A stretch of 64,000 nt of DNA from a virus (Duplodnaviria > Heunggongvirae > Uroviricota > Caudoviricetes), in the IMG/VR virus record IMGVR_UViG_3300021430_000416, positions 18,435 to 82,434 of that record; one strand, written 5' to 3'. The notes beneath the pieces were generated by a model. The model worked only from the letters and a program-made list of their open reading frames with translations, had not been told where the DNA came from and ran no database searches. Below are positions 12,001-36,653 of this stretch, piece after piece (the first letter of the stretch is position 1; the number at the start of each line of letters is the position of its first letter). Both the position numbers and the translations under genes were made by a program.

Positions 12001-12031
12001 TTTGGAATATTCTAGAATATCATTACCTTTG
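12001..12031 (+). promoter_or_regulatory. class-A promoter: TTTGG-AATATTCTAGAATAT (palindrome)-TACCTTTG
   Basis: -33 and -7 consensus at correct spacing. This 40-nt sequence recurs nearly identically at 36623 and in diverged form at 30723. Confidence 0.55.
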
Positions 12032-12060
12032 TAATGTAAACACAATAACAAACTATTATC

Positions 12061-13431
12061 ATGAGTACCCAATTACATAGAGAACTGAAATTATCGAGCG
12101 AAAAATATGTTTCATACGATGAATATTTGGGTGCACACTATACATTTGGTACCGCAAATGCCAAAGAGTTGAAACAATACCTATTGGATAATCTCGAATC
12201 ACAAGGTATTAATCCTGACGAATTTAATCGTGGGGGTGGTGATGATATTTCACAAAACCCACCTGTTGAGATTTATGAATACCAATTGTTTTTTCTATTG
12301 AGAAAAGAGAATGGTGATTTAATTCTTCTTGATGGTTTTAGACGTTTGTTGTGGTACAATTCTCCGAATCATAGAATTAATGTTAGAGTTTACGATGAGG
12401 GCGAATTAAGTAATCAACAAATAATGAAGTTGTTGATTTATTTGAACCACTTTAAATTTTATGGTAGTAGTGGAAAATATTTTGACCGTGGATTTGCACT
12501 TGGAATGCACACAATTTTTGGTTTGAACATACCAAAATACTATAACACTTTTGATGCATATCTCACGTTGAGTGATACTGAAAAAAAATATTGGAGTGAA
12601 AGTACTACCGACACAAAAGAGAATCTTAGTGTAAAGGAGAGAATGTTGAACCCAATGTTTATTTCCGACATGAAGTTCATTGAGTCTTTACTCGGTACTG
12701 ATGTGATGATTACCCCAATTATGGGAGCATTAATCCATAACACCAGACTTCAACACCCTGACAAAGAATTTTCAAGTGAGTTCTTTTTGAATAAGGTGAA
12801 TGAAAATGAAATCTTGAAAAAACTGCATGAGAAATTTCATAAAGTCGGTGATGGACACGGTGTAGATTCTCAGAAAATTGTCAATCAAATCGTACCTCTT
12901 TACAAAAACATTTTCAACGAAATGTTGGGTGGTGAAATTACATTAACATACGCCGAGAAAAAGGACGAAGTTAAAAAATTGGTTGAGCAATTGAAGAAGG
13001 ATAAAGCTCATACCAAACTAACTGGTAGTAAGAGCGCGTACCTAATGGAATGGGTTATGGAAGATAGAATCAAAAATAACCAACCAATCAATTTTAAATG
13101 TGTTATTCCCCCAAAGGAACTTGACCCACATCGTTGGAATCGAAATGGTGAAAATAATGACCCATTGGAACACGGTTTATTGAAACACGAGGTGAAAGTC
13201 CTTGGTAAAACGAGAGGGAAATCATATGGTTCATCAGAATTAAAAATTGGTTTTACCGATGAAGAAGGTCGTGAATTTATATTCCGACACAACTACGGAG
13301 ATTGGCACAGTTACGGTAAAAAATATACAACAATAGAAGGTGGTGGAATACCATGTATACGATATGATGTCGACCTTTTTGTTGATATCACCAAATCGGA
13401 AATTGAAGAAAAAGACAAAAACAGATATTAA
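12061..13431 (+). CDS. hypothetical protein with a ParB/Srx-like motif
   Basis: 456 aa. ILLDGFRRLL resembles the ParB nuclease-domain DGxxR motif. Weak. Confidence 0.5.
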   Translation: MSTQLHRELKLSSEKYVSYDEYLGAHYTFGTANAKELKQYLLDNLESQGINPDEFNRGGGDDISQNPPVEIYEYQLFFLLRKENGDLILLDGFRRLLWYNSPNHRINVRVYDEGELSNQQIMKLLIYLNHFKFYGSSGKYFDRGFALGMHTIFGLNIPKYYNTFDAYLTLSDTEKKYWSESTTDTKENLSVKERMLNPMFISDMKFIESLLGTDVMITPIMGALIHNTRLQHPDKEFSSEFFLNKVNENEILKKLHEKFHKVGDGHGVDSQKIVNQIVPLYKNIFNEMLGGEITLTYAEKKDEVKKLVEQLKKDKAHTKLTGSKSAYLMEWVMEDRIKNNQPINFKCVIPPKELDPHRWNRNGENNDPLEHGLLKHEVKVLGKTRGKSYGSSELKIGFTDEEGREFIFRHNYGDWHSYGKKYTTIEGGGIPCIRYDVDLFVDITKSEIEEKDKNRY

Positions 13432-13434
13432 AAT

Positions 13435-14358
13435 ATGGCAGAAGTATTAAACTTAGTCAACCCAAATGACACCTTATCTTTCAAGTATGAGATAAGTAGA
13501 TTCCCCGATGGGCAACAATCGTTACGATTGATTGAAGAGGGGTATAACACCTTTCACTCACTCAAAGATAATCCATACGGAATAACAATCAAATCACGTT
13601 TAAATGATTTCCGTGATTTGGAAATTATCATATGTGCAACACAAGCACTTAAAGAAGTTGGTGTCCAAAGAATCAGATTATATATTCCATATTGTACCGG
13701 AGCAAGAAGTGACCGTAAATTTATGGAGGGTGGAATTAATTATGTGAAACACGTAATCGCACCAATCATCAATTCACAAGGTTATGAACAGGTGATAATT
13801 ATGGACCCACATTCGGATGTTCTTGAAGCTTGCATCAACAACTTCGTTAAGGTTGATAACATTAGACTTGCGGAATTCACATTCAAAGATTATTTCTTAT
13901 CAAAAGGATTTGAAACTTGGTCAAATAGTAACTTTCAAAATGTTCGTTTGGTGTCACCCGATGCTGGCGCATTGAAGAAAGTGTTCCATGTTGCTGATAA
14001 ATTTGGTTATAAAAACGATATTGTTATTGCATCAAAACATAGAAATCTTGAAACTGGTAAAATTGATTTTACCAACGTACCTATGTCATTAAATGATGCG
14101 GATAAGGATGTGTTTATTTTCGACGACATTGGGGATGGTTTTGGTACATTTATAAACATCGCAAATGAAATTGAAGAAAAAAGAAAATTATCAAGTGATG
14201 TTCATCCATCACAACACGGAAAAAATTATTTGGTTGTCACACATTCAATACAAGAGATTGGTTTAAAAAGAGCATTAAATGTTTTTGATAAAATCTACAC
14301 CACAAATTCTATTAACGATTGGGAAATAGAGAATGTTGTTGTTTTAAATGTCTTTTAA
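13435..14358 (+). CDS. prs: ribose-phosphate pyrophosphokinase (PRPP synthetase) family protein, divergent (Prs or ADPR-pyrophosphokinase-like)
   Basis: YIPYCTGARSDRK matches PRS VIPYfGYARQDRK. IIMDPHSD, VSPDAGALKK and DDIGDGFGT match the PRPP-binding loop. The N-terminal FPDGQ region is divergent. Confidence 0.75.
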   Translation: MAEVLNLVNPNDTLSFKYEISRFPDGQQSLRLIEEGYNTFHSLKDNPYGITIKSRLNDFRDLEIIICATQALKEVGVQRIRLYIPYCTGARSDRKFMEGGINYVKHVIAPIINSQGYEQVIIMDPHSDVLEACINNFVKVDNIRLAEFTFKDYFLSKGFETWSNSNFQNVRLVSPDAGALKKVFHVADKFGYKNDIVIASKHRNLETGKIDFTNVPMSLNDADKDVFIFDDIGDGFGTFINIANEIEEKRKLSSDVHPSQHGKNYLVVTHSIQEIGLKRALNVFDKIYTTNSINDWEIENVVVLNVF

Positions 14359-15175
14359 AAAGTTCTTCCATATTTATGATAAATATGCGACCATGAAAGA
14401 ACTTAAAAAACCACAAATTAAATGGACAGAAGAAAAAAAACAATATCTAATTGAAAATTACCCATATGGTGATAAAAAAAAGATGTGTTTGGAATTAGGG
14501 TGTACATACAAATCTTTAAAAAGTATGGCAAGATTGTTAGGTGTAAAATCACTAACTGATAATAAACATTATAAATTAAAAACATTGATTGATGATAATG
14601 TTTATAACAATTACTGGTGGGGATACGTCTTGGCAGATGGCCATATAAATGAAAAAAATCAATTAAGTGTGGTTATTAAAGAATCTGATTCACATCATTT
14701 AAAAAAATTATCAGATTATTTAGGTGTAAATTTAAAATGTAGAAAAATTAAAACCGAATACTCTGAAGGTGTTTATTGTAACTTTACATGTCAAGATGTG
14801 ACATATGGTAAAATATTAAAAGAAAATTTGGGGGTAACTAAAAATAAAACATATGAATGTTTCGATTTTACTTGGATTAACACCGAAAAAAAATTTTTAA
14901 GTGTTTTTGCAGGATTTTATGATGGTGATGGGTGTTTAACATTGTCTAAAAACAAGACACCGGTAACAATGAAAATTGAATGTCACTACAATTGGTTCAT
15001 TTTTTTGGAGTTTTGTGGTTTGATGTTGAAAAAATATTATAACATAGAGTCAACGGTATATATCACAACAAAGGGTTCGTCGGCATTAAGGATATATGGT
15101 AAAAAAAACATAAATCTTTTATATGAAAAATGTAAAAAAAATAATTTACCTTTGTTGGAAAGAAAATGGAATTAA
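14348..15175 (+). CDS. LAGLIDADG homing endonuclease (two-motif, monomeric type)
   Basis: WWGYVLADGHI and FAGFYDGDGCLTL are two LAGLIDADG-like motifs about 100 aa apart. Confidence 0.6.
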   Translation: MSFKKFFHIYDKYATMKELKKPQIKWTEEKKQYLIENYPYGDKKKMCLELGCTYKSLKSMARLLGVKSLTDNKHYKLKTLIDDNVYNNYWWGYVLADGHINEKNQLSVVIKESDSHHLKKLSDYLGVNLKCRKIKTEYSEGVYCNFTCQDVTYGKILKENLGVTKNKTYECFDFTWINTEKKFLSVFAGFYDGDGCLTLSKNKTPVTMKIECHYNWFIFLEFCGLMLKKYYNIESTVYITTKGSSALRIYGKKNINLLYEKCKKNNLPLLERKWN

Positions 15176-15328
15176 ACAATTCACAGTTTGGTTAAACAAT
15201 TAAACGTATTTTAATATGGAATCATTACATCCCGCGGCTCAGGTAACTGCCATTATAGTGATTGGGGTAATTGTATGTGTTTTTATATTATCGGCACTAA
15301 CAACATTCTTCGATAAAAATTAAAAGAA

Positions 15329-15808
15329 ATGAAGACAACTAACAAACATGTGTTTTTTTGGAATGGTATATATTCCCAATGGCACAAAGCACCAATGACA
15401 ATCGATGGTGTTACATACAATTGTTGTGAACAGTATATGATGCATCAAAAAGCACTCCTTTTTGGTGATGTGGAAATTGCTCGACAAATTTTAAGAGTGA
15501 GCGACCCAAGAGAACAAAAAGAATTAGGTAGAAAAGTTAAAGGTTTCAATAAGGAGAAGTGGGATAAGGCTTGTGTTGGTATTGTTTACAAAGGTAACTA
15601 CGCAAAGTTCTCACAAAACGAAGATTTGAAAACCGAACTTCTAAACACAGGTAACAGAATTCCTGTTGAGGCATCACCCGTTGATTACATTTGGGGTATT
15701 GGAATGCATGAGGACGATAACGGTGTGGAGAACCCAGCAAATTGGAAAGGTACTAACCTTTTAGGTTGGTCAATTATGTTGGTACGTAACGAATTATCAA
15801 ATGAGTAA
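15329..15808 (+). CDS. NADAR (YbiA-like, DUF1768) domain protein
   Basis: FFW..SQWH, DGVTYNCCEQYMMHQKALLFGD, LGRKVKGF..EKW, KFSQNEDLKTELLNTGNRIPVEASPVDYIWGIG match the NADAR conserved blocks. Confidence 0.7.
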   Translation: MKTTNKHVFFWNGIYSQWHKAPMTIDGVTYNCCEQYMMHQKALLFGDVEIARQILRVSDPREQKELGRKVKGFNKEKWDKACVGIVYKGNYAKFSQNEDLKTELLNTGNRIPVEASPVDYIWGIGMHEDDNGVENPANWKGTNLLGWSIMLVRNELSNE

Positions 15809-16154
15809 TTTAATTTTCATATCATCACCATACTCAAATCCCGACCCTAAAGTTGTTGAAGAAAATTATATCAAGGTTGCAGAATTGGTTGCACATTTAA
15901 CACTAAATGGAATGACACCAATCTCACCAATAGTTTACGGTCATAATATTTTAAAGTTCGTTAGTCTTAATAATGATTGGGAAACTTGGAAGGACTTCTG
16001 TTTGACCTTCCTAAAAAAATCCGATGAGTTATGGGTCTACAAGATGGACGGTTGGAATCATTCGAGGGGTGTTGCAGAAGAAATTGAATTTGCGGTAAAA
16101 AACAATTTACACATAAAATATATCGAATATGAATACTTCAAAAAAGTTTTATAG
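15801..16154 (+). CDS. DUF1937-like protein (nucleoside 2-deoxyribosyltransferase/SLOG-like fold)
   Basis: N-terminus LIFISSPYSNPDP...GMTPISPIVYGH resembles the DUF1937 signature. Confidence 0.45.
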   Translation: MSNLIFISSPYSNPDPKVVEENYIKVAELVAHLTLNGMTPISPIVYGHNILKFVSLNNDWETWKDFCLTFLKKSDELWVYKMDGWNHSRGVAEEIEFAVKNNLHIKYIEYEYFKKVL

Positions 16155-16476
16155 GGTTTCACATGTCAACACACAACAAGGATTGTGGTACAACATGAAT
16201 GGCATCTTCACCGGGTTGATTCATAATGAATTCAATTTCTGTAAGAACAATAGTTTAGCAATGGATTTTGACGATACTATTGTGGGTTATCTATCGGCAA
16301 CACCAACACTTGATGAACTGTTTAATTGGTTCACAAAAGAAGACATTACAAAGTTACAGGAACATGATTATTATATTCATGTTTACGAATCTGACGACTA
16401 CAAGTTTTATGACAGATTCCAACACTTTGTAATCAACAAAGAATCATCCAAATTATTAGAAAAAATAGTATTATAA
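16129..16476 (+). CDS. hypothetical protein
   Basis: 115 aa ORF. Confidence 0.45.
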   Translation: MNTSKKFYRVSHVNTQQGLWYNMNGIFTGLIHNEFNFCKNNSLAMDFDDTIVGYLSATPTLDELFNWFTKEDITKLQEHDYYIHVYESDDYKFYDRFQHFVINKESSKLLEKIVL

Positions 16477-16913
16477 TGAAAGAATATTTCTATAAAAATC
16501 CGGAATCCATTCCGTACCTTGAGAGGTTAGAACAAGAATGGAGACAATATGGTAAGATAATCATCGCTTGCGATTATGACGATACCATTTCACCATGGAA
16601 AATGACTAACACAGATTTCAAACGAGTTTTTGATGTTCTGAATGTGGCAAAACAAACAGGTGCATATGTTGTAATCTTCACGGCATGTAAGGAAGATAGA
16701 TATCCTGAGATAACAAAATATTGTTTAGACAATGGTTTGGAGATTGACGGTATCAACACCACACCGATTGATTTACCATATGGTAACAACAAAAAGATTT
16801 ACGCAAACATCTTCATTGATGATAGGGCAGGTCTGAACGAATCATTAAACATACTCGAATTGGCTATGTACCGTATTCGTGGTAGTAAACAATTAAACAA
16901 TTTTGATTTTTAA
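16476..16913 (+). CDS. HAD-superfamily phosphatase-like protein
   Basis: IIIACDYDDTIS contains the DxDxT motif I, and the downstream VVIFTACKED resembles motif II. Confidence 0.45.
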   Translation: MKEYFYKNPESIPYLERLEQEWRQYGKIIIACDYDDTISPWKMTNTDFKRVFDVLNVAKQTGAYVVIFTACKEDRYPEITKYCLDNGLEIDGINTTPIDLPYGNNKKIYANIFIDDRAGLNESLNILELAMYRIRGSKQLNNFDF

Positions 16914-17373
16914 AATTATGGCAATATTTAAACCACCACACAACATTGCACATAGGAATACAAGAATGAAATCTGTATTTTTAGCCGGTTCAATTGAAAT
17001 GGGTAAAGCAGAAGATTGGCAAACAAATCTTTCAAATTTTTTCAACGACAATGGTTGGAATGTTTTTAACCCTCGTAGAGATGATTGGGATTCATCTTGG
17101 ACTCAGGATTTTGAAAACCCACAGTTTTACCAACAAGTAAGTTGGGAACTCAACGCATTAAGTCAATCCGATTTAATCATAATGTATTTTGCACCGGGAA
17201 CGCAGTCACCTATTTCATTATTGGAGATGGGTCTTTATGCAAATTCAGAAAAACTTCATGTGGTTTGTCCCGATGGTTTTTGGAGAAAAGGGAATGTGGA
17301 AATCGTATGTAATCATTACAACATTCCATTAACAAATACAATTGATGAATTATTAGAAAAATTAATACCATGA
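16903..17373 (+). CDS. nucleoside 2-deoxyribosyltransferase-like protein (start possibly at the internal MKSVFLAGS)
   Basis: VFLAGSIEMGKAEDW...NVFNP...SPISLLEMGLYANSEKLHVVCPDGFW matches the Nuc_deoxyrib_tr fold signature, including the catalytic Glu region. Confidence 0.6.
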   Translation: MIFKIMAIFKPPHNIAHRNTRMKSVFLAGSIEMGKAEDWQTNLSNFFNDNGWNVFNPRRDDWDSSWTQDFENPQFYQQVSWELNALSQSDLIIMYFAPGTQSPISLLEMGLYANSEKLHVVCPDGFWRKGNVEIVCNHYNIPLTNTIDELLEKLIP

Positions 17374-17876
17374 AAGAATTAATTGAAAATGCATTCGTTA
17401 TAATAATAGGTCTTATTCTTTTCTTTGGAATATGGTTGGTGATTGGTATGTTGATAGCATCTTGGTTTTCAAAATATGAATGGTATGAAAAAATTAAGTA
17501 CATTCACAAATTTGAAATACCAAAAAAATACCAAACCAAAGTCAGTCCAATTTACGAATTAACTGAAGACGATTGGAATAACGGGATGAGCATCAGGAAG
17601 TGGTCACTACGATATCACGAAAAAGAAGGACACCAAATACTATCACTATTTTTATTTTATCCGATTCAATTTTTAACGTATGGTTATCAAATTGATGATA
17701 CGGTTTTTGTATGTAAGAAAAAAGATATTGATTCTATTGTGGGAACTTTAGAAGAAAACTATGAGAGAATTTGGGGTAAAGAGAATGCGGAATATCTTCG
17801 AGAAAAAGAAATAAAAGACAAACAAAAACAAAAGATAAAAGATTTGAATCATATATTTGATGAGAATTATGAGTAA
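17370..17876 (+). CDS. hypothetical membrane protein
   Basis: 168 aa with an N-terminal TM helix. Confidence 0.5.
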   Translation: MKELIENAFVIIIGLILFFGIWLVIGMLIASWFSKYEWYEKIKYIHKFEIPKKYQTKVSPIYELTEDDWNNGMSIRKWSLRYHEKEGHQILSLFLFYPIQFLTYGYQIDDTVFVCKKKDIDSIVGTLEENYERIWGKENAEYLREKEIKDKQKQKIKDLNHIFDENYE

Positions 17877-18084
17877 GAAAAAATTTGATTGTCAGAGAGT
17901 GTTTGAGATGGAATCAAGGTGCAACGTACAGTGTGACCATTGTAAAGAATACTATAAAGGTAGAGACCCATTAACTTCGGATGATTTAGTTAGATTAAAT
18001 ATACTAAGATGGTTAAAGAAGAAGGATTTAATAACCGATGAAGTTGATGTTATTTGGTCTGAGTACGTTAAAGAGAATCCATAA
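17857..18084 (+). CDS. hypothetical protein (CxxC...CxxC)
   Basis: 75 aa ORF. Confidence 0.4.
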   Translation: MMRIMSKKKFDCQRVFEMESRCNVQCDHCKEYYKGRDPLTSDDLVRLNILRWLKKKDLITDEVDVIWSEYVKENP

Positions 18085-18120
18085 TTTTGTTTTCAGAAAA
18101 AAATTAATTATATTTTACAC

Positions 18121-18723
18121 ATGGGTGCGGACATTCACGTTTTCTTAGAAAAGAAAACCACAATCAACAACGAATCTAAGTGGGTCAACATAGACTACTG
18201 GCAATTAAATCCATACTATGACGGTGTGGATGAGTACGAAAAAGAATACGACCACGTACCGGTTTATAGTGGTCGTGATTACGAACTATTCAACCTACTC
18301 GCGGGAGTGAGAGGTTCGGGTAATGGTATGGTTGATGAACCTAGAGGTTTACCTGAAGATGTTTCGGAAGCAACAAAGAAAGAATCGGACAGATGGAGTT
18401 CCGATGGTCACACACATTCTCACTTTACTCTATTTGAATTAAAAGAGTATTTGGAAAAGAATCCAACAACTGTATATGGTGGAATGGTTACACCTGAAGA
18501 TGCCGAAAAAATTGATAAGGGTGAAGGTACACCTAATTCATGGGCAGGATGGGTTAGTGATAGTTTAGGTTGGGTATATAGAGATTGGTTAGAACCATCA
18601 CCACTTAATAGAATTGTTAATAAAATAAACGAGAGATTTAAGGATGAATTTTATATTTATGATGATAATAGACATCCTGAAAAAGAAAAATCAATAAGAA
18701 TCGTTTTTTGGTTTGACAACTAA
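18121..18723 (+). CDS. hypothetical protein of the MG(A/L)D(I/M)(H/Y) N-terminal family
   Basis: Starts MGADIHVFLEKK. Compare MGLDIYLYRY at 11205 and MGLDMYLHKK at 52967(-). Confidence 0.5.
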   Translation: MGADIHVFLEKKTTINNESKWVNIDYWQLNPYYDGVDEYEKEYDHVPVYSGRDYELFNLLAGVRGSGNGMVDEPRGLPEDVSEATKKESDRWSSDGHTHSHFTLFELKEYLEKNPTTVYGGMVTPEDAEKIDKGEGTPNSWAGWVSDSLGWVYRDWLEPSPLNRIVNKINERFKDEFYIYDDNRHPEKEKSIRIVFWFDN

Positions 18724-18952
18724 TATGGGTAACTACACAACAGAAACTAAAGACTACTACGAATGTGAAAGATGTGGTGTAACAACTGCAACCGAAAATA
18801 GGTTATGTCCTTGTAACAGAAGAGTCTGCGATGCGGTAAAAAAGGGGACATTAAGGATAACTAAGACTATAACCCTTGATGGTGAAGGTGGTAATTCGAA
18901 CCAGTTGTTTAATGATGACATCGGTCAAATGATTGCATCAATGAATTTATGA
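18713..18952 (+). CDS. small zinc-ribbon-like protein
   Basis: CERC...CPCNRRVC. Confidence 0.4.
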   Translation: MTTNMGNYTTETKDYYECERCGVTTATENRLCPCNRRVCDAVKKGTLRITKTITLDGEGGNSNQLFNDDIGQMIASMNL

Positions 18953-19007
18953 TTTGTAAATTGTAAATTCATTTGTTTTTCTCAAAAAAAATTCTTATAT
19001 TTTAAAC

Positions 19008-19259
19008 ATGAAACAATTCATTTTTGTTTGTTTGGTATCATTTGTTCTTGTATCGTGCAGTAATAACACACGTTACGATGAAATCAAACTTAAATACGTG
19101 ATTGACTCTGTGGAGTATCACCCCATAGGTCATGACAATACGTTACAAACCTCACCTTATTGGAAACTCCACATTAATGATGGAAAAAATAAAATAGTGT
19201 CACGACAACCTTATGAAAAGGGTGACAGTATTGAAGTTATTGTAAGAAAGATTAAATAA
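19008..19259 (+). CDS. small lipoprotein
   Basis: Signal peptide ending LVSCSNN (lipobox). Confidence 0.5.
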   Translation: MKQFIFVCLVSFVLVSCSNNTRYDEIKLKYVIDSVEYHPIGHDNTLQTSPYWKLHINDGKNKIVSRQPYEKGDSIEVIVRKIK

Positions 19260-19265
19260 TAAATT

Positions 19266-20352: not shown

Positions 20353-20426
20353 GTTGACACCTGAACAGGAAGACACCTTATGGTGGGAACATTACCAAAA
20401 AACAATCTATTTGGAGGAAAACGATA

Positions 20427-23610: not shown

Positions 23611-23614
23611 TATA

Positions 23615-27765: not shown

Positions 27766-27767
27766 TC

Positions 27768-28010: not shown

Positions 28011-28022
28011 ATTTTTAAAAAT

Positions 28023-28370: not shown

Positions 28371-28371
28371 T

Positions 28372-29463: not shown

Positions 29464-29687
29464 TGAAATATCTAGGACAAAACGAATTAGGACAAGAAGT
29501 ATTCCATAACCAACCAAAAGAAGTTGATTGGGCTGGTGTTGATTATGATGGTGAGTTGAAGTTTGGTAGAGCAATCAATCCAAGATACACATGGGCATCA
29601 GAAGTTTGGAGAGGATACGAACCAATTGGTGAAACGGTTGAGAATAGTGGATATAAACCATTAACACAAATAAAGAGAGAACAATGA
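29463..29687 (+). CDS. hypothetical protein
   Basis: 74 aa ORF. Confidence 0.4.
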   Translation: MKYLGQNELGQEVFHNQPKEVDWAGVDYDGELKFGRAINPRYTWASEVWRGYEPIGETVENSGYKPLTQIKREQ

Positions 29688-29920
29688 AAAAGTTAGTTTG
29701 GAAATTAATTAATATCCTTGATAATAATCACGGGTATTCAACACCACTACAAAAGAGATTTGATGTTGGTGATATTGTTAAGATGTCAATACATAAGAAA
29801 CCCGATACCATTTTTAGAATAAACGAGGAAGTCAAGATATTAGAAACGGGAAGACATGACTACCTTGTTGAAAACATAAGAGGTTTAAAGGCGGTTGTTT
29901 ATCAATTTGAATTATCATGA
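29684..29920 (+). CDS. hypothetical protein
   Basis: 78 aa ORF. Confidence 0.4.
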   Translation: MKKLVWKLINILDNNHGYSTPLQKRFDVGDIVKMSIHKKPDTIFRINEEVKILETGRHDYLVENIRGLKAVVYQFELS

Positions 29921-30348
29921 AAATAAAACTATTATTAATTGCAACATTGTTATTGTCCGCATGTGGTCCTTCTTACACACCTGAAGAAGAGGTAAGACTG
30001 AAAAGAGAAATCACCCGTTTAAGTGGTGAGAGAAGTGGGTTGGTTCAAGATGTAAGAACACTCCAAGGTCAACACGATATCTTAAAGAATGAGGTTTCTG
30101 TTTACCAAACTGAAAAAAAGATTTACGATTCGGGAAAAACGCCGGTCTATATTTTAACTCTCCATTTCCAAGAACATAAGATGGAACTATCCTTTGATAG
30201 AATCAGTTTCAGTTTCGATGTTCCGGTTGATGAGCAGTTCTACAAGGAAAGTAAAATCGGTTCAGAATTGGGTCATGGTTCTCGTTCATTTAAATTATTC
30301 CATAGTGGTGATATTACAATTGAGGATAAGAGAATAGAATATCGTTAA
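29917..30348 (+). CDS. lipoprotein
   Basis: Signal peptide LLSACGPS. Confidence 0.5.
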   Translation: MKIKLLLIATLLLSACGPSYTPEEEVRLKREITRLSGERSGLVQDVRTLQGQHDILKNEVSVYQTEKKIYDSGKTPVYILTLHFQEHKMELSFDRISFSFDVPVDEQFYKESKIGSELGHGSRSFKLFHSGDITIEDKRIEYR

Positions 30349-30716
30349 TGGGTGGATTCAAATTCTTACGTGGTTACGAAGGGGTAAGATTTGTTCCGGT
30401 ATTAGAACCGGGTGTGAGGTGGATTGATAGACCTGAACTTGAAATAAGTTATTTTGATGGAGGTGTGATTCACACAAGAAGATATCATAGTCAAATTTAT
30501 AATTTACGAGATTCTTCATTAAGGTCTTTTATTGACAATAACCCCGATGCGTATATAGCAATATTCCAAGCGATGCACGTACCCACAGGTACTTTAATAT
30601 CGGTTAGAGAGGGAAACGTAGAGCAACTAGATTTTAGACAACCAGACATGAATTATAGAATGGTGGTCATTAACGATTTAACCATACCTGAAAGAGAAAT
30701 TGATAGAATATTTTAA
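30348..30716 (+). CDS. FKFLRGY-family small protein
   Basis: N-terminus MGGFKFLRGYEG. One of six paralogs sharing this N-terminal peptide. Confidence 0.55.
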   Translation: MGGFKFLRGYEGVRFVPVLEPGVRWIDRPELEISYFDGGVIHTRRYHSQIYNLRDSSLRSFIDNNPDAYIAIFQAMHVPTGTLISVREGNVEQLDFRQPDMNYRMVVINDLTIPEREIDRIF

Positions 30717-30722
30717 AAAAAA

Positions 30723-30754
30723 TTTGGAATATACTAGAATTCGTTTTACATTTG
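30723..30754 (+). promoter_or_regulatory. class-A promoter (TTTGG-AATATACTAGAATTCG-TACATTTG)
   Basis: Diverged copy of the 12001/36623 promoter. Confidence 0.5.
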
Positions 30755-30791
30755 TCTTCACAAACAAACAAACAATAATGGTTTAAAACTA

Positions 30792-30944
30792 TGGAAAAGT
30801 ACAAAGTAACACTTTTAAATTCAAAGGATGAAGAAGTGTTAGTCACATTAGTTTACGCTACAGATTACGCAGATGCCGACAGAAAGGCCAAAGCGTTGGT
30901 TGAAAGTTCAAGAGATAAGAGTGTTGTATCTTATAGAATATTAT
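30792..30944 (+). CDS. small hypothetical protein (50 aa, below the ORF-track cutoff)
   Basis: ATG about 38 nt after the -7 box. MEKYKVTLLNSKDEEVLVTLVYATDYADADRKAKALVESSRDKSVVSYRIL. Confidence 0.3.
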
Positions 30945-30949
30945 AACCA

Positions 30950-31156
30950 ATGATTAAGTGTACAGACAAAGGTAAGTGGACTTGTATTGGTAGAAACGGT
31001 GTACCAAAGAAATCATTTAATGATGATAAGTCAGCAATAAGTGCTGCGAAAATTATAAATGAAAACACACCCGACTCACCAACTAAACTGGTGGCTTATA
31101 AGTGCACCCATTGTCAGAAATATCATTTATTATCAGTTAGAAGAAAAAAACAATGA
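30950..31156 (+). CDS. small zinc-ribbon protein
   Basis: CTDKGKWTC...CTHCQKYH. Confidence 0.45.
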   Translation: MIKCTDKGKWTCIGRNGVPKKSFNDDKSAISAAKIINENTPDSPTKLVAYKCTHCQKYHLLSVRRKKQ

Positions 31157-31443
31157 AACTATTTGGAAAACTTTTAATTCTATTACTCATAGTTTTGAGT
31201 AGTTGCGAAGAAGGTAATGTGAAATATTCTTGTGTTGAAGGAAACATTAGGATATTAAATAAAGAAAAGTATCCTTGTGCTAGAGGCGGTGGTGATTGCG
31301 TTTTCAAATTTTATCTTTACGATGGGAAAAACGCATATTGGTGCAACACCGATAAAACTACGTGGGATAACTACAATGTGAACGATACTTTACCAACAAT
31401 AGTAATTACAAAAACAGTTGTAGTTTCGGAGGGACATCAATAA
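31153..31443 (+). CDS. lipoprotein
   Basis: Signal peptide VLSSCEEG. Confidence 0.5.
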   Translation: MKLFGKLLILLLIVLSSCEEGNVKYSCVEGNIRILNKEKYPCARGGGDCVFKFYLYDGKNAYWCNTDKTTWDNYNVNDTLPTIVITKTVVVSEGHQ

Positions 31444-31715
31444 CATGACACACTATCCAATATTAATCATCAGGAAAGATGACAACGAAGAGTTTATTCA
31501 TTTGGGTGAAGGTATGTACAGAACGAAGTGGGGACTAATGAATAACAGTATTCAAGAGACTCCACTTTCTGCATTTGATGCGAATCATTTCACATTCTAT
31601 TATAAATGAAAAAAATTCTTATCATAGGGTTATCGTTATTACTAATGTCTTGTTCTGTTAAGAAAAGACAGATGCCCTATCGATATCAATATAAAAACAT
31701 TCCACATTTTAAAGT

Positions 31716-32021
31716 ATGATTGCATATAAATTAATCAGGAAGTTGAAGGATGGTTCGTTATCACCATTGTTCATCAACAAGAAGAGTAGAATACCCGTTG
31801 GTGTTTGGATGGATGCTGAATATCACCCAACAAAAGGATATGCCGGTAGAAAAGGTTGGCATTGTACATTGAAACCCAACGCACCACACCTATCAGAAAA
31901 GAACCGAGTATGGGTTGAGGTTGAGGTGGAAAACTATGAATACTACAATAGACCCGAATCACAAGGTGGTACTTGGGTGTTAGCACAAAGAATGAAAGTC
32001 ATTCGAGAATTAAACTCGTAG
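31716..32021 (+). CDS. hypothetical protein
   Basis: 101 aa ORF. Confidence 0.45.
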   Translation: MIAYKLIRKLKDGSLSPLFINKKSRIPVGVWMDAEYHPTKGYAGRKGWHCTLKPNAPHLSEKNRVWVEVEVENYEYYNRPESQGGTWVLAQRMKVIRELNS

Positions 32022-32045
32022 AAAATAAAATATTTTCATTATTTT

Positions 32046-32077
32046 TTTGGATATTCCGAAAAAATCAATTACCTTTG
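32046..32077 (+). promoter_or_regulatory. Bacteroidetes-type promoter (TTTGG-N19-TACCTTTG)
   Basis: Consensus -33 and -7 elements about 24 nt upstream of the ATG at 32101. Confidence 0.5.
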
Positions 32078-32100
32078 AAGTCAAATAAAAAAGAAAAGTT

Positions 32101-32325
32101 ATGATGAAATTTGTAATCATTGTCCTACTAATTGTGGGAGTAATTTCGGCACTAGTTTACATTGGTCAATTGATATTTGGCCAAAAGAAAACCCCTAACA
32201 CCACACTATCGGGATTAAAGACCGAGGTTGAGGAAACCGTTTCTAAAGTGAAAGAAACAAAGGAAAAAGTAAAAGACATCAATCAAGAGGTTGATGAAAT
32301 AAACGAAACACTTAAAAACTCTTAA
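32101..32325 (+). CDS. small membrane/coiled-coil protein
   Basis: 74 aa with an N-terminal TM helix. Confidence 0.45.
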   Translation: MMKFVIIVLLIVGVISALVYIGQLIFGQKKTPNTTLSGLKTEVEETVSKVKETKEKVKDINQEVDEINETLKNS

Positions 32326-32353
32326 TTAATCAAAACAAAACAAAAAAACAAAA

Positions 32354-33547
32354 ATGGAAAATCAAGTAAAAAACATCATTAAGATTGTCGTAGTTGCGGT
32401 TTTAGCAATCACTACACTGTTCGTAGCCCCAAAATTATTCGAGGACGTGGATGCCGGTGAAGTTGTAATCATCCAAGACCCGTTTGATGGTGAACTACAC
32501 GTTAACACAGAACCTGGTTTTGTTTGGCAAGGTGGTGGACGAGCGACTCACTATCGTAAATCAAATCAGTTTTGGTTCTCAGCACCTACTGAAGAAGGTC
32601 AACCAAACTTATCAATCCCTGTAAAATGGAATGACGGTGGTCACGCATCTATCTCGGGTTCTGTTCGTTATGACCTACCTACCGACCAAGTGAGTTTAAT
32701 TAAGATTCACTCAATCTTCGGTTCACAAGAAGCATTGGAAACTCAATTAATTAAAACAAACATTGAGAAGGCAATCTACATGACAGGTCCACTTATGACA
32801 TCTAAAGAATCATACGCAGAAAAACGTAACGATTTGATTTTCTACATCGAAGACCAAGCATCTCGTGGTGTGTATAAAACAAAACAGATTGAGGTGAAAG
32901 AAGTTGATGCACTTACTAACGAAGAAAAGTTGGTGACTAAAGTTGAGATTGTTGAGAAGACACCGGGTCAACCTATTCGTCAGGAAGAATCACCAATTAA
33001 ATCTTATGGTGTTCGTTTATATAACATCTCAATCAACGGCATCACCTATGATAAAGCAGTTGAGAAACAAATCCAAACTCAACAACAAGCAATCATGAAC
33101 GTACAGACCGCTATCGCAAACGCTAAGAAAGCAGAACAAGACGCTATCACCATTGCTAAACAAGGTGAGGCTGAAGCAGCAAAAGCTAAGTGGGAACAAG
33201 AGGTTATCAAGGCTAAGATGGTGACTGAAGCTGAAGCGAAACGTAAAGTTGCTGAAGAAGATGTTAAAACCGCTGAATTAAACAAACGTCGTGACATCCT
33301 TGAAGGTGAGGGTATTGCAGCTAAGAAAAGATTGGTGATGCAGGCGGACGGTGCATTGGAACAAAAACTTGCGGCTTGGAAATTTGCCGAAGAAAAGAAA
33401 TGGGATGCATTCTCTAAATTCTCAGGTAATATGGTTCCTCTTTATCAATCAGGTAATGGTAGTGGTAACAACAACGCCATGAATTGGATGGAGATTATGG
33501 GAATGAAAGCAGCTAAGGATTTAAACTTAGACCTTAAAGCGAAGTAA
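32354..33547 (+). CDS. SPFH/band-7 (prohibitin/HflK-like) membrane protein
   Basis: N-terminal TM helix. GEVVIIQDPFDGELHV..PGF is an SPFH core. The C-terminus is an Ala/Lys/Glu-rich coiled coil typical of HflK/C. Confidence 0.65.
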   Translation: MENQVKNIIKIVVVAVLAITTLFVAPKLFEDVDAGEVVIIQDPFDGELHVNTEPGFVWQGGGRATHYRKSNQFWFSAPTEEGQPNLSIPVKWNDGGHASISGSVRYDLPTDQVSLIKIHSIFGSQEALETQLIKTNIEKAIYMTGPLMTSKESYAEKRNDLIFYIEDQASRGVYKTKQIEVKEVDALTNEEKLVTKVEIVEKTPGQPIRQEESPIKSYGVRLYNISINGITYDKAVEKQIQTQQQAIMNVQTAIANAKKAEQDAITIAKQGEAEAAKAKWEQEVIKAKMVTEAEAKRKVAEEDVKTAELNKRRDILEGEGIAAKKRLVMQADGALEQKLAAWKFAEEKKWDAFSKFSGNMVPLYQSGNGSGNNNAMNWMEIMGMKAAKDLNLDLKAK

Positions 33548-33599
33548 TAAATATGGGTGTTGTTACCCTTGGTTACGACCAAAAATAAAAACAAAAGTT

Positions 33600-33624
33600 G
33601 GGGAGACTATTCTCCCCAATATTT
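33600..33624 (+). terminator. rho-independent terminator after the SPFH gene
   Basis: GGGGAGA-ctat-TCTCCCC hairpin followed by a T-rich tract. Confidence 0.5.
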
Positions 33625-34345
33625 CCCCGATTGTCGGTCAGTCCTAAACACGGTGTTCGAGTCACCATAAAAACGGTAGTGTTGCGGATGGTAGGTTCGA
33701 GTCCTATGTCGGGGGCAAACCTCAGAAGTAATTAATCTGAGACTGAGTGATTCGAAGCACTCGATTGGTTATGGTGTATTGGGCACAGTAGAACGGAGTA
33801 CCGACAGTTCACATGAGGACGGGGAAAGGGGATACGGGATTGGGTTCGACTCCCTTTAATCAACTAAAGACCCCACAATTGACGGACGTACTCATCTGTC
33901 ATGGTGTGTGAACCCGGCATGAAGGCTCCGGGGCTATGGGGGAGGCTACACAAAAAGTGAAACTCACATAATCTCTAATAAACGGGGTTAACTGATTTGG
34001 GGAAGTTCAATCAGGTGTGTTGGAATCGAAACCATGAGTTCCTCATTATGGGTTGAGAGGGTTAGGGACTTTAATTAGTCGTGTTGTAATCCACAAGTCG
34101 TAAAGATACTGAACAACTTTACGGTACACACTCTTCTTCCGAGTGAGACTCCCACGTAACTTTGGGGGTAGGGTGAAGATGTTCTGAGGGTATCCCTGAA
34201 AGATGGGAGAGAGTAGAGACCTATCGTGGATGGTTACTAAGTCTTAACGAATCTTGAGACTATCGGTAGGGATATTATGTCGCCAAATATAACTTTCAAA
34301 AGGTTCTCCCAAAATGGCGTGGGGATGGTTCAGGACCTTTTTTTA
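33625..34345 (+). ncRNA. candidate large structured non-coding RNA (class unknown) with an embedded tRNA-like T-arm/acceptor motif
   Basis: About 720 nt with no ORF of 60 aa or more on either strand. Locally much more G+C-rich than the flanks. Contains several GTTCGAGTC / GTTCGACTC T-loop hairpins and many G-rich helices, and ends in a T7 run at about 34338. Confidence 0.4.
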
Positions 34346-34358
34346 CATTAACCTTAAT

Positions 34359-34790
34359 ATGAAAAAACAATTTATAAAAGACTTACCAATTTACCTAAAT
34401 GGGTTTGCAGTTGGATTTATATTTTGGAGTCTCCCGAAGTACGATATAATAAGTATATTAATGTACATTCTATCAATGGTGACTTTCTTTTGGTACGGAA
34501 AAACTTTAACCAAAAAAGAAGAAGGGAGATTCATACCAAGAAAGTACAGAATATTCAATGTTGATGTTTTCAACGAATGGTTTAATGATAAAGAGAACGG
34601 TGCGGTTTATGCTAACTCCGGCATTTTCCTAAGATTGGATAAACTTTCAATCTCACACATCGAAGATTATTTAGTTAAATGTCACGGGTTGGAATTATCC
34701 AATTGGGATATTGATGAGGATGTGAGAAATTTCTACGAGGAAATTAGAAAAGACTGGTTAAACAAACTTAATCAAAACGAAACAAAATAA
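34359..34790 (+). CDS. hypothetical membrane protein
   Basis: Start taken at MKKQF. The upstream in-frame extension overlaps the ncRNA/terminator region. Confidence 0.5.
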   Translation: MKKQFIKDLPIYLNGFAVGFIFWSLPKYDIISILMYILSMVTFFWYGKTLTKKEEGRFIPRKYRIFNVDVFNEWFNDKENGAVYANSGIFLRLDKLSISHIEDYLVKCHGLELSNWDIDEDVRNFYEEIRKDWLNKLNQNETK

Positions 34791-34948
34791 TGGAACAGAA
34801 ATTTTTAATAACAGATGACCCACATACTGTACAGGGTTATTTAGATAAGGGTTGGAGGGTAGTGTCTGTAACTGCACAGGTGGTATCAACAGGGAAAGAT
34901 TATTCTTCTGAGAAAGGTAAATTTGCAATTGTTTTAGAAAGAGCACTA
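34790..34948 (+). CDS. small hypothetical protein (52 aa, below the ORF-track cutoff)
   Basis: MEQKFLITDDPHTVQGYLDKGWRVVSV... ATGA overlaps at both ends. Confidence 0.4.
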
Positions 34949-35397
34949 TGACACCAAAGATAAAAAGAAAGTGGATTAAAGAGGAGAAACGAATCGTTTA
35001 TCTCTTATATAGAAAAGGACTCTTAAAAGATTTTAAGGTGTCCGATTTGTATTGGGCCGAATATCATTGGTATCGTAAAAAATGTTATAAAACTAAGAAA
35101 AACAAATACGACGGTAAAAGATATAGATTCCCCATATACATGCCGGAGATTCATTATTGCACCACAGATTATTGGGGTGAGAGTGATGAACATAGCATCG
35201 TTTCACACGTACTTGATATGTTGCATTGGCAACATGTTGACATGGATAATTGGGATGACACATCAGGTGAGTGGCCTAAGTCAACATTCAAGAAAATGAA
35301 TAGAAGTCAATTCATTCATTACCTGAAAAAACTACCGACAGTAGTTCCCGACAATAAAGTAAACAAACTATTAAAAAAATGTTCATATGATGAATAA
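34948..35397 (+). CDS. hypothetical protein
   Basis: 149 aa ORF. Confidence 0.5.
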   Translation: MTPKIKRKWIKEEKRIVYLLYRKGLLKDFKVSDLYWAEYHWYRKKCYKTKKNKYDGKRYRFPIYMPEIHYCTTDYWGESDEHSIVSHVLDMLHWQHVDMDNWDDTSGEWPKSTFKKMNRSQFIHYLKKLPTVVPDNKVNKLLKKCSYDE

Positions 35398-35857
35398 TAT
35401 AGATAAGAAAAAATACGTCACATATGACCAAGCCGTAAAACTCAAAGAAAAAGAATTCAATGAGGAGTGTAAGTATTTTTACGACATGGAATTTAAAGAA
35501 CTAACATTCCACATTGGTGATGTTGGGGATATATATAGGAATTCAGAAATTGTGAATGGTTATGGTAAATTAAATTACCCAATGATATCTGCACCTAGAC
35601 TAACAGATGTGGTTGATTGGTTATTAAAACATCACGATATATGGGTTTACACTTACCCGGTTAAACCATTCAATCCTTTTGAGGGTGATGAACATTATCC
35701 AAATATTGTGTGGGTTAGTAAGGTTTTGTCACTTAAACAAGTTAACTTTGAAAAGTTTATCGATGCGGACAACGGTCTTGCGGTGAATCATCATCACACA
35801 CCCGAAGATGCAATCTCTGCGGCGTTAGACTTTTTATTGAAAGATAACACAAAGTAG
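35387..35857 (+). CDS. hypothetical protein
   Basis: 156 aa ORF. Confidence 0.5.
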   Translation: MMNNIDKKKYVTYDQAVKLKEKEFNEECKYFYDMEFKELTFHIGDVGDIYRNSEIVNGYGKLNYPMISAPRLTDVVDWLLKHHDIWVYTYPVKPFNPFEGDEHYPNIVWVSKVLSLKQVNFEKFIDADNGLAVNHHHTPEDAISAALDFLLKDNTK

Positions 35858-35870
35858 AATTAAACGGTGA

Positions 35871-36350
35871 ATGAATAACATTTTCAAATTCGGTCGAGGT
35901 TATTTAGATGGTCTCAAATATAGAATCACTGAAGAACATGGTGTAACTTATGTTGTTCACATTGATTTTGCTGAATTGTCTGAATGTTTAGACAGAAATG
36001 GTGTGAACAGTGTTGATACTCTATTCAATTATTGGAATAGTATGAATCGAAACCATTACGAGGTTATCGATTACACAAGACCCACCGAACAGATTAGGGT
36101 TGGTGTGGTTACCAACACTAGAGATTCATTTAGACGTTGGTTAGAGAGTAACAACATGGCATCTGTTATAAGAACGGTTCGTCAATCAGGACAGAATGTT
36201 CGTTTGGGAAATACTTTTTATAGGAACATAACAACTTCAACCGATTTTAGGGGATATACTTTTGATTATTTTATTGATACCGATAGTGCACATCTGAATC
36301 GTGAATTTAATGAGATTAATGAACAAAAAAGATACCGTTTAATCCAATAA
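35871..36350 (+). CDS. hypothetical protein, diverged member of the FKFLRGY family
   Basis: N-terminus MNNIFKFGRGYLDG. Confidence 0.5.
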   Translation: MNNIFKFGRGYLDGLKYRITEEHGVTYVVHIDFAELSECLDRNGVNSVDTLFNYWNSMNRNHYEVIDYTRPTEQIRVGVVTNTRDSFRRWLESNNMASVIRTVRQSGQNVRLGNTFYRNITTSTDFRGYTFDYFIDTDSAHLNREFNEINEQKRYRLIQ

Positions 36351-36355
36351 TAGTT

Positions 36356-36604
36356 ATGGCATACAAAATATACACCGAACAAAACCTAGCCGACACATCA
36401 AGAGACCCCGATGATGTTGTCATTGAAGAATTGGGTTACAAAAATAACTTAGATGATGCATTATTGTTAGGTAACAACTTCATAAAAGACAATTTCTTTC
36501 ACAAGGACACCACAATTAGACAAAGAACTGATGACACATACACCGCAACAGATTTTTGTAGTTACGGTAAAACCTTGATAATCAAGGAGATTGTAATTGA
36601 TTAG
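36356..36604 (+). CDS. hypothetical protein
   Basis: 82 aa ORF. Confidence 0.45.
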   Translation: MAYKIYTEQNLADTSRDPDDVVIEELGYKNNLDDALLLGNNFIKDNFFHKDTTIRQRTDDTYTATDFCSYGKTLIIKEIVID

Positions 36605-36622
36605 AAAAAAATCAAAAAAAAA

Positions 36623-36653
36623 TTTGGAATATTCTAGAACATCACTACCTTTG
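36623..36653 (+). promoter_or_regulatory. class-A promoter: TTTGG-AATATTCTAGAACAT-TACCTTTG
   Basis: Near-identical to the promoter at 12001. Confidence 0.55.

Follow-up and report, generated by a model that had tools for sequence, protein, structure and literature searches.

Near-identical host-type promoters with a probably incidental spacer palindrome in a large Bacteroidota phage

Introduction

Early promoters of the T4 and T5 type follow an extended consensus and occur in many near-identical copies, conserved beyond the core elements without a dedicated spacer-binding factor. T4-type phages also carry mobile PeSL cassettes, in which a promoter and stem-loop repeats lie on both sides of variable ORFs, and temperate phages carry morons, promoter-led ORFs that separate two genes which are direct neighbors in relatives. 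In Bacteroidota, the sigma-A consensus consists of a -33 TTTG and a -7 TAnnTTTG (PMC7366714, PMC9723704). A preprint documents strong Bacteroides phage promoters that outperform P_rRNA, as well as engineered TetR/LacI spacer operators that function in Bacteroides (bioRxiv 10.1101/2025.03.18.644028).

Here we describe three promoters, P1 to P3, in a window of 64,000 nt from a member of the Caudoviricetes (IMG/VR record IMGVR_UViG_3300021430_000416, positions 18,435 to 82,434). They are like the primary-sigma (sigma-A or sigma-ABfr) promoters of Bacteroidota in both elements, in spacing, in the A/T-rich upstream region, in the short A-rich leader without a Shine-Dalgarno sequence and in their place before ORFs; unlike plain promoters of that class, they have a -33 extended to TTTGGAATATTC and repeat the whole 40 nt. 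The P_BfP1E6 family of synthetic biology is likewise phage-borne and host-polymerase-dependent, with UP-like elements and a -7 box; it is reported to be stronger than P_rRNA and P_rpoD, whereas the strength of P1 to P3 is presumed. As with T4/T5-type early promoters and PeSL, P1 to P3 border on variable cassettes of small genes in a genome that is large and mosaic, but host phylum and promoter grammar differ. P1 to P3 are ordinary in kind, and we think it rather likely that they are copies of a strong host RNA polymerase promoter, with cassette insertion and short-tract conversion as the routes of spread, and that the palindrome in their spacer is incidental.

Results

P1 (11992 to 12040, plus strand) consists of an A9 run (11992-12000), a -33 TTTG (12001-12004) and a -7 box, TACCTTTG (12024-12031), with the sequence at 12001 reading TTTGGAATATTCTAGAATATCATTACCTTTGTAATGTAAA. 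Its conserved 18-mer TTTGGAATATTCTAGAAT (12001-12018) is here termed the P-box. Transcription is predicted to start at about 12036-12038, as judged from Flavobacterium, where the -7 box spans -12 to -5 relative to the start (PMC9723704). P2 (36614 to 36662, plus strand; TTTGGAATATTCTAGAACATCACTACCTTTGTGATGTAAA at 36623) has the same layout, with an A9 run (36614-36622), the -33 (36623-36626), a P-box with one change, TTTGGAATATTCTAGAAC (36623-36640), and an identical -7 box, TACCTTTG (36646-36653). The diverged P3 (30715 to 30760, plus strand; TTTGGAATATACTAGAATTCGTTTTACATTTGTCTTCA at 30723) comprises an A8 run (30715-30722), the -33 (30723-30726), TTTGGAATATACTAGAAT (30723-30740) and the -7 box TACATTTG (30747-30754). 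The three sequences and their positions, 12001, 36623 and 30723, are exactly as an earlier note on this DNA had given them, and their near-identity holds: a 20-mer recurs at 0, 1 and 3 mismatches, where chance would give 0.02 matches, and none of 100 shuffles reaches three. P1 and P2 are identical at 37 of 40 nt and share the same A9. The A/T-run claimed before each copy is also present, as 8 to 9 A following the stop codon of the upstream ORF. Each copy lies within a stop-to-ATG gap of 67 to 75 nt, co-oriented with the downstream gene, whose ATG follows 28 to 36 nt later (12061, 36680 and 30791), and replication, nucleotide and RNA-repair genes make up the block that contains all three.

The assignment to the Bacteroidetes-type consensus stands, as P1, P2 and P3 all have the -33 TTTG, the usual spacing and the -7 TAnnTTTG. 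The bipartite -33/-7 motif occurs 28 times in the window versus 4.3 expected, and its copies in the window and in relatives are all in promoter position and orientation. The distance from TTTG to TAnnTTTG is 19, 19 and 20 nt in the three copies, equal to that of the other ~25 promoters of the window; a promoter of the MerR-activated type would have an over-long spacer that needs distortion. At least two further families recur with spacer and 5'UTR conserved, and examples of families in the window with a conserved spacer are TTTGGATTATAYCGAAAATAGATTTATCTTTG (6 to 8 copies) and TTTGGTAAAAAGAAA... (4 to 5 copies). With ~28 promoters in the window, several families of which repeat the spacer included, spacer conservation is not special here. 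Promoters of the TTTGGATATTCCGAAA type are another promoter type of this phage besides the P-box promoters.

The extended -33, TTTGGAATATTC, accounts for 12 of the 18 nt of the P-box and takes in the palindrome's left half. The pattern TTTGGAATATTC-N10-14-TAnnTTTG is found at no fewer than 119 IMG/VR loci, corresponding to at least 100 distinct promoter instances; among the matches listed, loci related to the window make up only 22 of the 119, most of the Bacteroidota phages that carry these promoters being unrelated to it. In these listed phage promoters, positions 13 to 19 are A-rich, T13 is seen in 14% and the palindrome-forming G15 in 7%, and only T13 and G15 set the P-box apart from the A-rich consensus. 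An ORF lies within 80 nt downstream of 62% of them, versus 33% of random positions. Bacterial genomes contain the extended pattern at 66 loci, ~61 of them in Bacteroidota, and 11 of 67 bacterial matches lie 15 to 42 nt upstream of tRNA genes; TAGAAT is found in none of the 66 host-genome promoters with the pattern. By a rough estimate, enrichment in bacterial genomes is only ~2-fold. Judged from these matches, the generality of the extended -33 is well supported for phages, and for hosts only its use is shown. In the searchable literature, we found no description of a TTTGGAATATTC extension of the -33.

Of the perfect spacer palindrome claimed for these promoters, the P1 copy stands, with an extent of 14 bp (ATATTCTAGAATAT, 12007-12020), and P2 and P3 do not have it. 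The 16-mer form given earlier, AATATTCTAGAATATT, is absent, as the first copy reads ...GAATATC. Seven of seven dyad pairs are kept in P1, six of seven in P2 and four of seven in P3, with no compensatory change. A fourth, diverged copy that the earlier note had missed, P4 (50862-50831, minus strand; TTTGGAATATTCCAGCGGATTCACTAATTTCG), upstream of ORF 50805-50233, carries a different palindrome. Against shuffles of the same sequence, the P1 palindrome has p ~0.04, which fails after the testing of 25 promoters. Scanning with the 14-mer at up to 3 mismatches yields 12 matches versus 9.3 expected, of which none but the three in the promoters are close, and copies of the box are all in promoter position, with none in other contexts.

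A similar palindrome does exist in related phages, as a perfect 10-bp core, ATTCTAGAAT, in P1, L002, L008, L010 and L020. The exact 18-mer TTTGGAATATTCTAGAAT is present in the last four, phage contigs of 50 to 80% amino acid identity, mostly before non-orthologous genes and with the rest of the spacer varying. This recurrence is more conservation than drift allows, but it is ascertained, because the search used an exact 17-mer; a complete-length relative contig of 310 kb has one exact copy of the box only. At the position orthologous to P4, L020 and L002 have an exact P-box and L226 and L241 have TTTGGAATATTCTAGTAA; TTTGGAATATTCTAG is kept in four of five relatives, while the right half varies. 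The window has 42 CTAG sites versus 204 expected, a 5-fold depletion, yet CTAG is retained in all three copies and in four of five relatives at the P4 site, a retention that suggests base-specific constraint at T13-A14-G15. The box TTTGGAATATTCTAGAAT can also be parsed as three alternating GAA/TTC pentamers. The palindrome inside these promoters is probably a by-product, not a switch: GAATATTC is self-complementary, and TAGAAT, which comes directly after it, would mirror it by chance.

Like MerR-family promoters and those with engineered TetR/LacI spacer operators, P1 has dyad-symmetric sequence between its core elements. However, MerR promoters have an over-long spacer and P1 to P3 a normal one of 19 to 20 nt, and, unlike in spacer-operator systems, the symmetry does not hold from copy to copy or among orthologues and no cognate regulator is found among the adjoining ORFs.

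P1 and the 456-aa ORF that it is predicted to drive (12061 to 13431, plus strand) form an insertion (~11997-13434) between a 272-aa gene and a Prs-like gene. Promoter and ORF are absent from the syntenic relative L070, in which 6 nt separate the stop codon of the 272-aa orthologue from the Prs ATG, an arrangement like that of a moron. Unlike morons, the cassette is without its own terminator at its 3' end; the ORF stops at 13431 and the Prs ATG is at 13435, a distance of 3 nt, so transcription would run on from the insert into the gene behind it. The 3' boundary, examined for a repeat, has none, only A-rich microhomology, and unlike T4-type PeSL the cassette has no flanking repeats on both sides. 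The description of this ORF as ParB-like could not be upheld, with no Pfam match even at E<=1, no PHROG match and no PDB sequence match at E<=5. It has one homologue, in L021, at 41% identity. The stretch LLDGFRRL within it is merely reminiscent of a ParB/Srx-type N-terminal domain.

Another moron-like arrangement is headed by P3, which precedes four small ORFs of 51, 68, 96 and 54 aa (30791 to 31609, plus strand); the stretch 30723-31715, with P3 and these ORFs, has no counterpart in the relative L028.

P2 is predicted to drive a 116-aa ORF (36680 to 37030, plus strand), a very widely conserved protein of large phages with >200 homologue clusters at 70 to 96% identity on contigs of up to 318 kb. 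As homology with L028 begins at 36607, the gene upstream of P2 differs from that in L028. The positional orthologues of P2 (L028-31, 96% amino acid identity; L033, 89%; L024/25, 87%; L027, 84%) keep the A-run, -33 and -7 elements and have unrelated spacers, and L028-31 retain the A-run, TTTGG, -7 box and 5'UTR. From this comparison, P2 looks like a conversion patch. P1 and P2 are the only copies whose -7 box lies within a small inverted repeat (-3.5 and -8.7 kcal/mol, reached by 2.8% and 0% of shuffles, respectively), that of P2 being ACATCAC/GTGATGT.

Discussion

In the explanation that we favor, P1, P2, P3 and the decayed P4 would be host RNA polymerase promoters of the Bacteroidota primary-sigma type, belonging to a strong-promoter subfamily in which the -33 is extended to TTTGGAATATTC and A/T-rich sequence comes next. 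Their near-identity would stem from recent copying within a mosaic jumbo-phage genome, not from a spacer-reading protein, with one copy, P1, having arrived with an inserted ORF and P2 being a ~40-nt conversion patch over a pre-existing promoter. The architecture, enrichment and position of the motif are observed, as are the insertion, the differences between orthologues and the broad distribution of the extended -33; beyond these, we infer that host sigma-A holoenzyme alone is sufficient for P1 to P3, that these are strong promoters and that conversion was the copying mechanism. The earlier claim that conservation over 40 nt implies a spacer-reading factor and a co-regulated temporal class finds no support: promoters of this genome are as a rule conserved over their whole length, the widespread TTTGGAATATTC includes the palindrome's left half, P2 orthologues have unrelated spacers, P1 came with an inserted ORF, P2 resembles a conversion patch and the dyad symmetry is not maintained.

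The P-box, notably its ATTCTAGAAT core, could instead be an operator, where a dimeric phage or host regulator bound at about -30 to -17 would repress by occlusion or activate a small regulon. Consistent with this are the perfect 14-bp palindrome of P1, the 10-bp core common to P1 and four relatives and the confinement of box copies to promoters (of 12 matches to the 14-mer versus 9.3 expected, the three promoter copies are the only close ones), and engineered spacer operators confer repression in a Bacteroides phage promoter (bioRxiv 10.1101/2025.03.18.644028). The reading keeps weight because the exact 18-mer occurs in four diverged relatives and CTAG is kept in a CTAG-depleted genome. We nevertheless judge an operator unlikely, as the symmetry decays without compensation from P1 through P2 and P3 to the other palindrome of P4, unrelated phages and host tRNA upstream regions have the left half-site as their generic extended -33, and the site is wholly missing at orthologous promoters of sibling phages. 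Also against it, the complete-length 310-kb contig has a single exact copy, the box is found with and without an upstream TTGTTTGGCAA module and on both transcription blocks, and no DNA-binding family is matched among the ORFs adjoining the promoters (the window has ~110 ORFs). A broader pair of possibilities is that either TTTGGAATATTCTAGAAT is a real binding site through which a phage or host protein switches a small, evolutionarily mobile set of otherwise constitutive strong promoters, or GAATATTC after the -33 TTTG is an undescribed element of Bacteroidota RNA polymerase promoters, used by phages and tRNA genes for very high expression; we hold this only tentatively.

The location of the copies invites the thought that repeated promoter cores are short homology "linkers" for the shuffling of cassettes between co-infecting phages, as with T4-type promoter/stem-loop cassettes. 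P1 heads an inserted cassette and P3 one that is missing in L028, homology with L028 breaks exactly at P2 and at a promoter at 32046, the same box precedes non-orthologous genes in relatives, and the -7 boxes of P1 and P2 are framed by inverted repeats. Yet such coincidence of breakpoints and promoters is expected, because both are confined to the few intergenic gaps of a tightly packed genome; the argument draws on three or four junctions, and at its 3' end the P1 cassette lacks a repeat. A recombination role would, moreover, follow from the similarity of the promoters and would not compete with their function as promoters, and as an explanation of the copies we find it quite improbable. Reprogramming of transcription is common in jumbo phages, and the box adjoins and includes the -33 element, with its plus-strand copies in the replication, nucleotide and RNA-repair block, so it might mark promoters of a phage-modified polymerase, through sigma appropriation or a phage sigma-like factor that reads GGAATATTCTAGAAT instead of or besides the -33, comparable to the MotA box in middle promoters of T4. 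With the canonical -33 TTTG and -7 box intact at normal spacing, the same extended -33 before host tRNA genes in many Bacteroidota and no candidate factor identified, this seems very improbable indeed.

As a genuine operator, the palindrome would be the first natural regulatory site to be described in phages of this kind, though the comparative evidence speaks against it. The arrangement of A-tract, TTTGGAATATTC, A/T-rich spacer and TAnnTTTG is a candidate design for a strong, portable promoter and a possible expression tool, and the extended -33 prompts one to ask what recognizes the bases that follow the -33. For the poorly known ~300-kb phages of Bacteroidota, these copies document promoter evolution in which whole cores are duplicated, exchanged and brought along by incoming genes.

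Three copies of a Bacteroidota-type promoter

The plus-strand promoters at 12001 (P1), 36623 (P2) and 30723 (P3) have exactly the sequences and positions quoted in the earlier note. The 20-mer TTTGGAATATTCTAGAATAT matches P1, P2 and P3 with 0, 1 and 3 mismatches, respectively, and as only 0.02 matches are expected by chance, a chance origin of the three copies is ruled out. Every copy consists of TTTG, 19-20 nt and TAnnTTTG, with an ATG 28-36 nt downstream, and each is indeed preceded by a run of 8-9 A that follows the stop codon of the upstream ORF. P1 and P2 are identical at 37 of 40 positions, as well as in the A9 run, P3 is clearly more diverged, and the minus strand holds a decayed fourth copy (P4) at 50862-50831. 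With the -7 box taken to span -12 to -5 (PMC9723704), P1 transcription is predicted to start at ~12036-12038. In an Rfam search, P1-P3 overlapped no known RNA family, the sole match being one tRNA elsewhere. Inverted repeats surround the -7 box of P1 (CATTAC/GTAATG, 12016-12042) and of P2 (ACATCAC/GTGATGT, 36638-36664; -8.7 kcal/mol, reached by 0 of 500 shuffles) and are missing from P3; two of the three P1/P2 differences move the pairing register rather than abolish pairing.

The TTTG/TAnnTTTG pattern is the published primary sigma factor consensus of the phylum (PMC7366714, PMC9723704). Promoters of this type (TTTG-N17-21-TAnnTTTG) occur 28 times in the window, compared to 4.3 expected, which upholds the assignment made earlier; the window, a section of a large phage genome, carries expression signals of the Bacteroidota type, and P1-P3 are Bacteroidota sigma-A promoters in every testable respect.

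Conservation beyond the two boxes is not peculiar to P1-P3. In the minus-strand block at 52-63.5 kb, two further promoter families are repeated with spacer and leader included, TTTGGATTATAYCGAAAATAGATTTATCTTTG in 6-8 copies and TTTGGTAAAAAGAAA...TTATATCTTTG in 4-5. On the plus strand, three TTTGGATAT(T/C)CNCGAAA promoters (6818, 27151, and 32046) are distinguished from the P type essentially by a single base of the -33 extension and by CGAAAA in place of TAGAAT. As spacer and leader are conserved in other families too, the argument that 40 conserved nucleotides imply an additional factor reading the spacer would cover nearly every promoter of this phage. The minus strand between 52378 and 63456 is densely packed with small genes that each have a promoter of their own from one of two near-identical families (TTTGGATTATAYCGAAAATAGATTTATCTTTGTTCAACAA and TTTGGTAAAAAGAAA...TTATATCTTTGTATCAACAA), with leaders conserved as well.

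The palindrome and the extended -33 element

A perfect palindrome had been described in the spacer of all three promoters. The 16-mer as quoted is absent; the perfect form is the 14-mer ATATTCTAGAATAT, found only in P1, with 6 of 7 pairs left in P2 and 4 of 7 in P3 and no compensatory changes. The P1 palindrome reaches p ~0.04 against shuffles, which does not survive the testing of 25 promoters. Dyad symmetry as a general property of the promoters of this phage was likewise tested and ruled out.

A scan of phage contigs for TTTGGAATATTC-N10-14-TAnnTTTG returned at least 119 loci, with ~100 distinct promoter instances among the matches listed. Only 22 of the 119 loci listed show protein similarity to the window, and 62% of listed matches have an ORF within 80 nt downstream (median, 18 nt) versus 33% of random positions. 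Positions 13-19 of the listed promoters are A-rich (A = 0.64, 0.66, 0.76, 0.60, 0.49...). Among these matches, the phage-wide consensus TTTGGAATATTCAAAAAW differs only at T13 and G15 from the P-box, the conserved 18-mer that begins at the -33 TTTG (12001-12018 in P1). G15, the one informative base that the palindrome of the earlier note requires, is present in 7% of listed phage promoters, and C13, required by an alternative palindrome, TTTGGAATATTCCAAA, in 11%.

Among species-representative genomes, TTTGGAATATTCNRRAAW-N3-8-TAnnTTTG is found at 66 loci, ~61 of them in Bacteroidota of many families; 11 of 67 matches sit 15-42 nt upstream of tRNA genes, and none contains TAGAAT. Host polymerase evidently uses the extended -33. 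Enrichment in bacterial genomes is only ~2-fold over the position-specific expectation by a rough estimate, so we claim host use but not a host consensus. Judged by its sequence distribution, the palindrome's left half is a general promoter element, and the whole would be self-complementary GAATATTC joined to a fortuitous TAGAAT. A literature search with the 12-mer returned nothing relevant. In a Prevotella metagenome-assembled genome (L210, 3166-3213), the perfect palindrome TTTGGAATATTCCAAA is the common -33 of two divergent TAnnTTTG promoters, one per strand.

A minority reading sees in the P-box an operator or else a base-specific contact for the polymerase. An exact 17-mer scan of IMG/VR found four true relatives among its matches (L002, L008, L010, and L020; 50 to 80% amino acid identity), and in all four the box follows an A/T run and precedes T, 6-7 variable bases and a -7-like box; the genes that it heads are, in three of the four, non-orthologous to those behind P1-P3. 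Four of five relatives keep TTTGGAATATTCTAG at the P4 site, the window's own copy having decayed, and CTAG, 5-fold depleted in the window (42 versus 204 expected), is nevertheless present in all three copies. The single exact box copy on a 310-kb relative contig speaks against a regulon, however, as does the free pairing of the box with varying upstream modules (plus strand, an A-run; minus strand, a TTGTTTGGCAA box). P1-P3 lack the testable properties of a conserved spacer operator, as well as those of a MerR-type promoter. The box as target of the neighboring LAGLIDADG endonuclease was also considered and dropped, as the endonuclease gene was inserted separately, 2.3 kb away, and shows no link to the box.

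Origin of the copies

P1-P3 stand at the heads of variable cassettes. The relative contig L070, which is syntenic with window positions 1-25 kb, GATC-free like the window and 85% identical in NAMPT, has a Prs-like gene that starts 6 nt after the 272-aa gene, which identifies P1 plus its 456-aa ORF (~11997-13434) as an insertion into that gap. The NAD-salvage island (9445-15175; NAMPT, 9445-10947; Prs-like kinase, 13435-14358) is thus split relative to L070 by this insertion and by a second, separate one, the LAGLIDADG gene (14348-15175). The label "ParB-like" for the ORF at 12061-13431 finds no support in Pfam, PHROGs, or PDB sequence searches. P1 resembles a moron-like cassette in being inserted but has no terminator, and P1-P3 resemble T4-type PeSL cassettes only in part.

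At P2, the closest relatives (L028-31; protein 96% identical) keep the A-run, TTTGG, -7 box and 5' untranslated region around a different spacer, TTAATTCAATTTAACCCAT, and still other spacers occupy the site in L033 (89%), L024/25 (87%) and L027 (84%). In the alignment, the P2 core (TTTGG to GTAAA) resembles P1 (37/40) more closely than it does its own orthologue, the P2 leader matches the orthologue, and homology to L028 starts at the A-run, together the pattern left by conversion or replacement of a short tract. L028 has no counterpart of P3 and its four small ORFs. The P-box is absent at up to 4 mismatches in 18 from ~337 kb of loci with homologues of the 116-aa protein behind P2, which are only partly close relatives, and at up to 3 mismatches from 1.16 Mb collected by NAMPT, save for TTTGGAATATTCTAAAAA in L070.

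Relatives and gene content

The coiled-coil-like 116-aa protein (36680-37030), labeled "archaellum component FlaC" in some sources, is unusually conserved, with more than 200 homologue clusters (70 to 96% identity) on metagenomic contigs that reach 310-318 kb, which places the window in a widespread jumbo-phage group. A single-protein relative search yielded one locus, and an alignment-based metagenome scan 35, mostly from phages that infect other hosts and have no Bacteroidota promoters; none of the 35 carries the P-box. The protein occurs on phage contigs of 28 to 53% GC and differing promoter type and is apparently spread across hosts. Within 10 kb of its gene lie Cas3, Cas7-like and Cas6 genes in L027 (7243-12256), a TnpB/Cas12f-like gene in L024/L025 (16059-17399) and a tyrosine integrase in L028 (2661-3467). 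The 456-aa protein retrieved a single 41% relative without a comparable promoter, and a 166-aa protein none. Among 50,697 GenBank phages, megablast found nothing that matches 11000-15000; judged by helicase, the nearest isolates are Bacteroides phages SJC03/DAC (~38% amino acid identity), too distant for promoter comparison.

Recognizable genes include NAMPT, the Prs-like kinase, the LAGLIDADG endonuclease, a Thg1-like enzyme, an RNA ligase and the helicase. The Thg1-like tRNA-His guanylyltransferase (1703-2542) lies near the RNA ligase (3860-4891), suggesting a tRNA-repair module at 1703-4891. Two ORF-free stretches hold tRNA-like genes, 33548-34313 (766 nt) a tRNA-Ser(CGA) at 33625-33716 and 37751-38172 a tRNA at 37807-37884, the former detected only by ARAGORN and the latter only by Rfam. 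GATC is wholly absent (204 expected), as is GGATCC, and CTAG, AGCT, GGCC, GCGC, and CGCG are 4- to 8-fold depleted, which is strong restriction-site avoidance. The GATC-free state is common to the closest relatives (L028-31, L033, L070, and L020) but not to more distant ones.

A candidate class-defining site and the role of P1-P3

The 11-mer TTGTTTGGCAA (up to 1 mismatch) has 28 copies in the window versus 2.5 expected, 23 of them on the minus strand within 48787-63580, and is also found in relatives L020, L226, and L002. Where it stands upstream of a promoter, its distance to the -7 box is strictly 41 or 51 nt, two values that differ by one helical turn; a sigma-54-type reading of the upstream TGGCA box was rejected on spacing by sequence inspection. 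Away from promoters it forms hairpins, TTGTTTGGC-loop-GCCAAACAA. At 52371-52425 (minus strand), a promoter lies within a hairpin, CAGGGGTA...TATCCCTG, followed by TTTT, and the stem shows compensatory changes in L020 (~7340-7400; CTGGGATAT/ATATCCCAG) and L226 (GAGGATA/TATCCTC); this appears to be a terminator that overlaps the following promoter.

P1-P3 are promoter-shaped, host-type elements of a widely used extended -33 subfamily. They would be read by the host sigma-A holoenzyme unaided, and the A-tract and GAATATTC probably make them strong, in line with what has been reported on other Bacteroides phage promoters (bioRxiv 10.1101/2025.03.18.644028). Their near-identity may stem from recent insertion and short-tract conversion, presumably favored by the common A-run/TTTGG and TTTG/GTAAA flanks. 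As an upstream terminator is absent, P1-P3 would act as internal promoters on top of read-through transcription. The observation holds up, but it is of an ordinary kind. The TTGTTTGGCAA box, likely a factor site or a terminator/promoter module, is a better candidate than the P1-P3 elements for the regulatory site that defines a promoter class in this phage.
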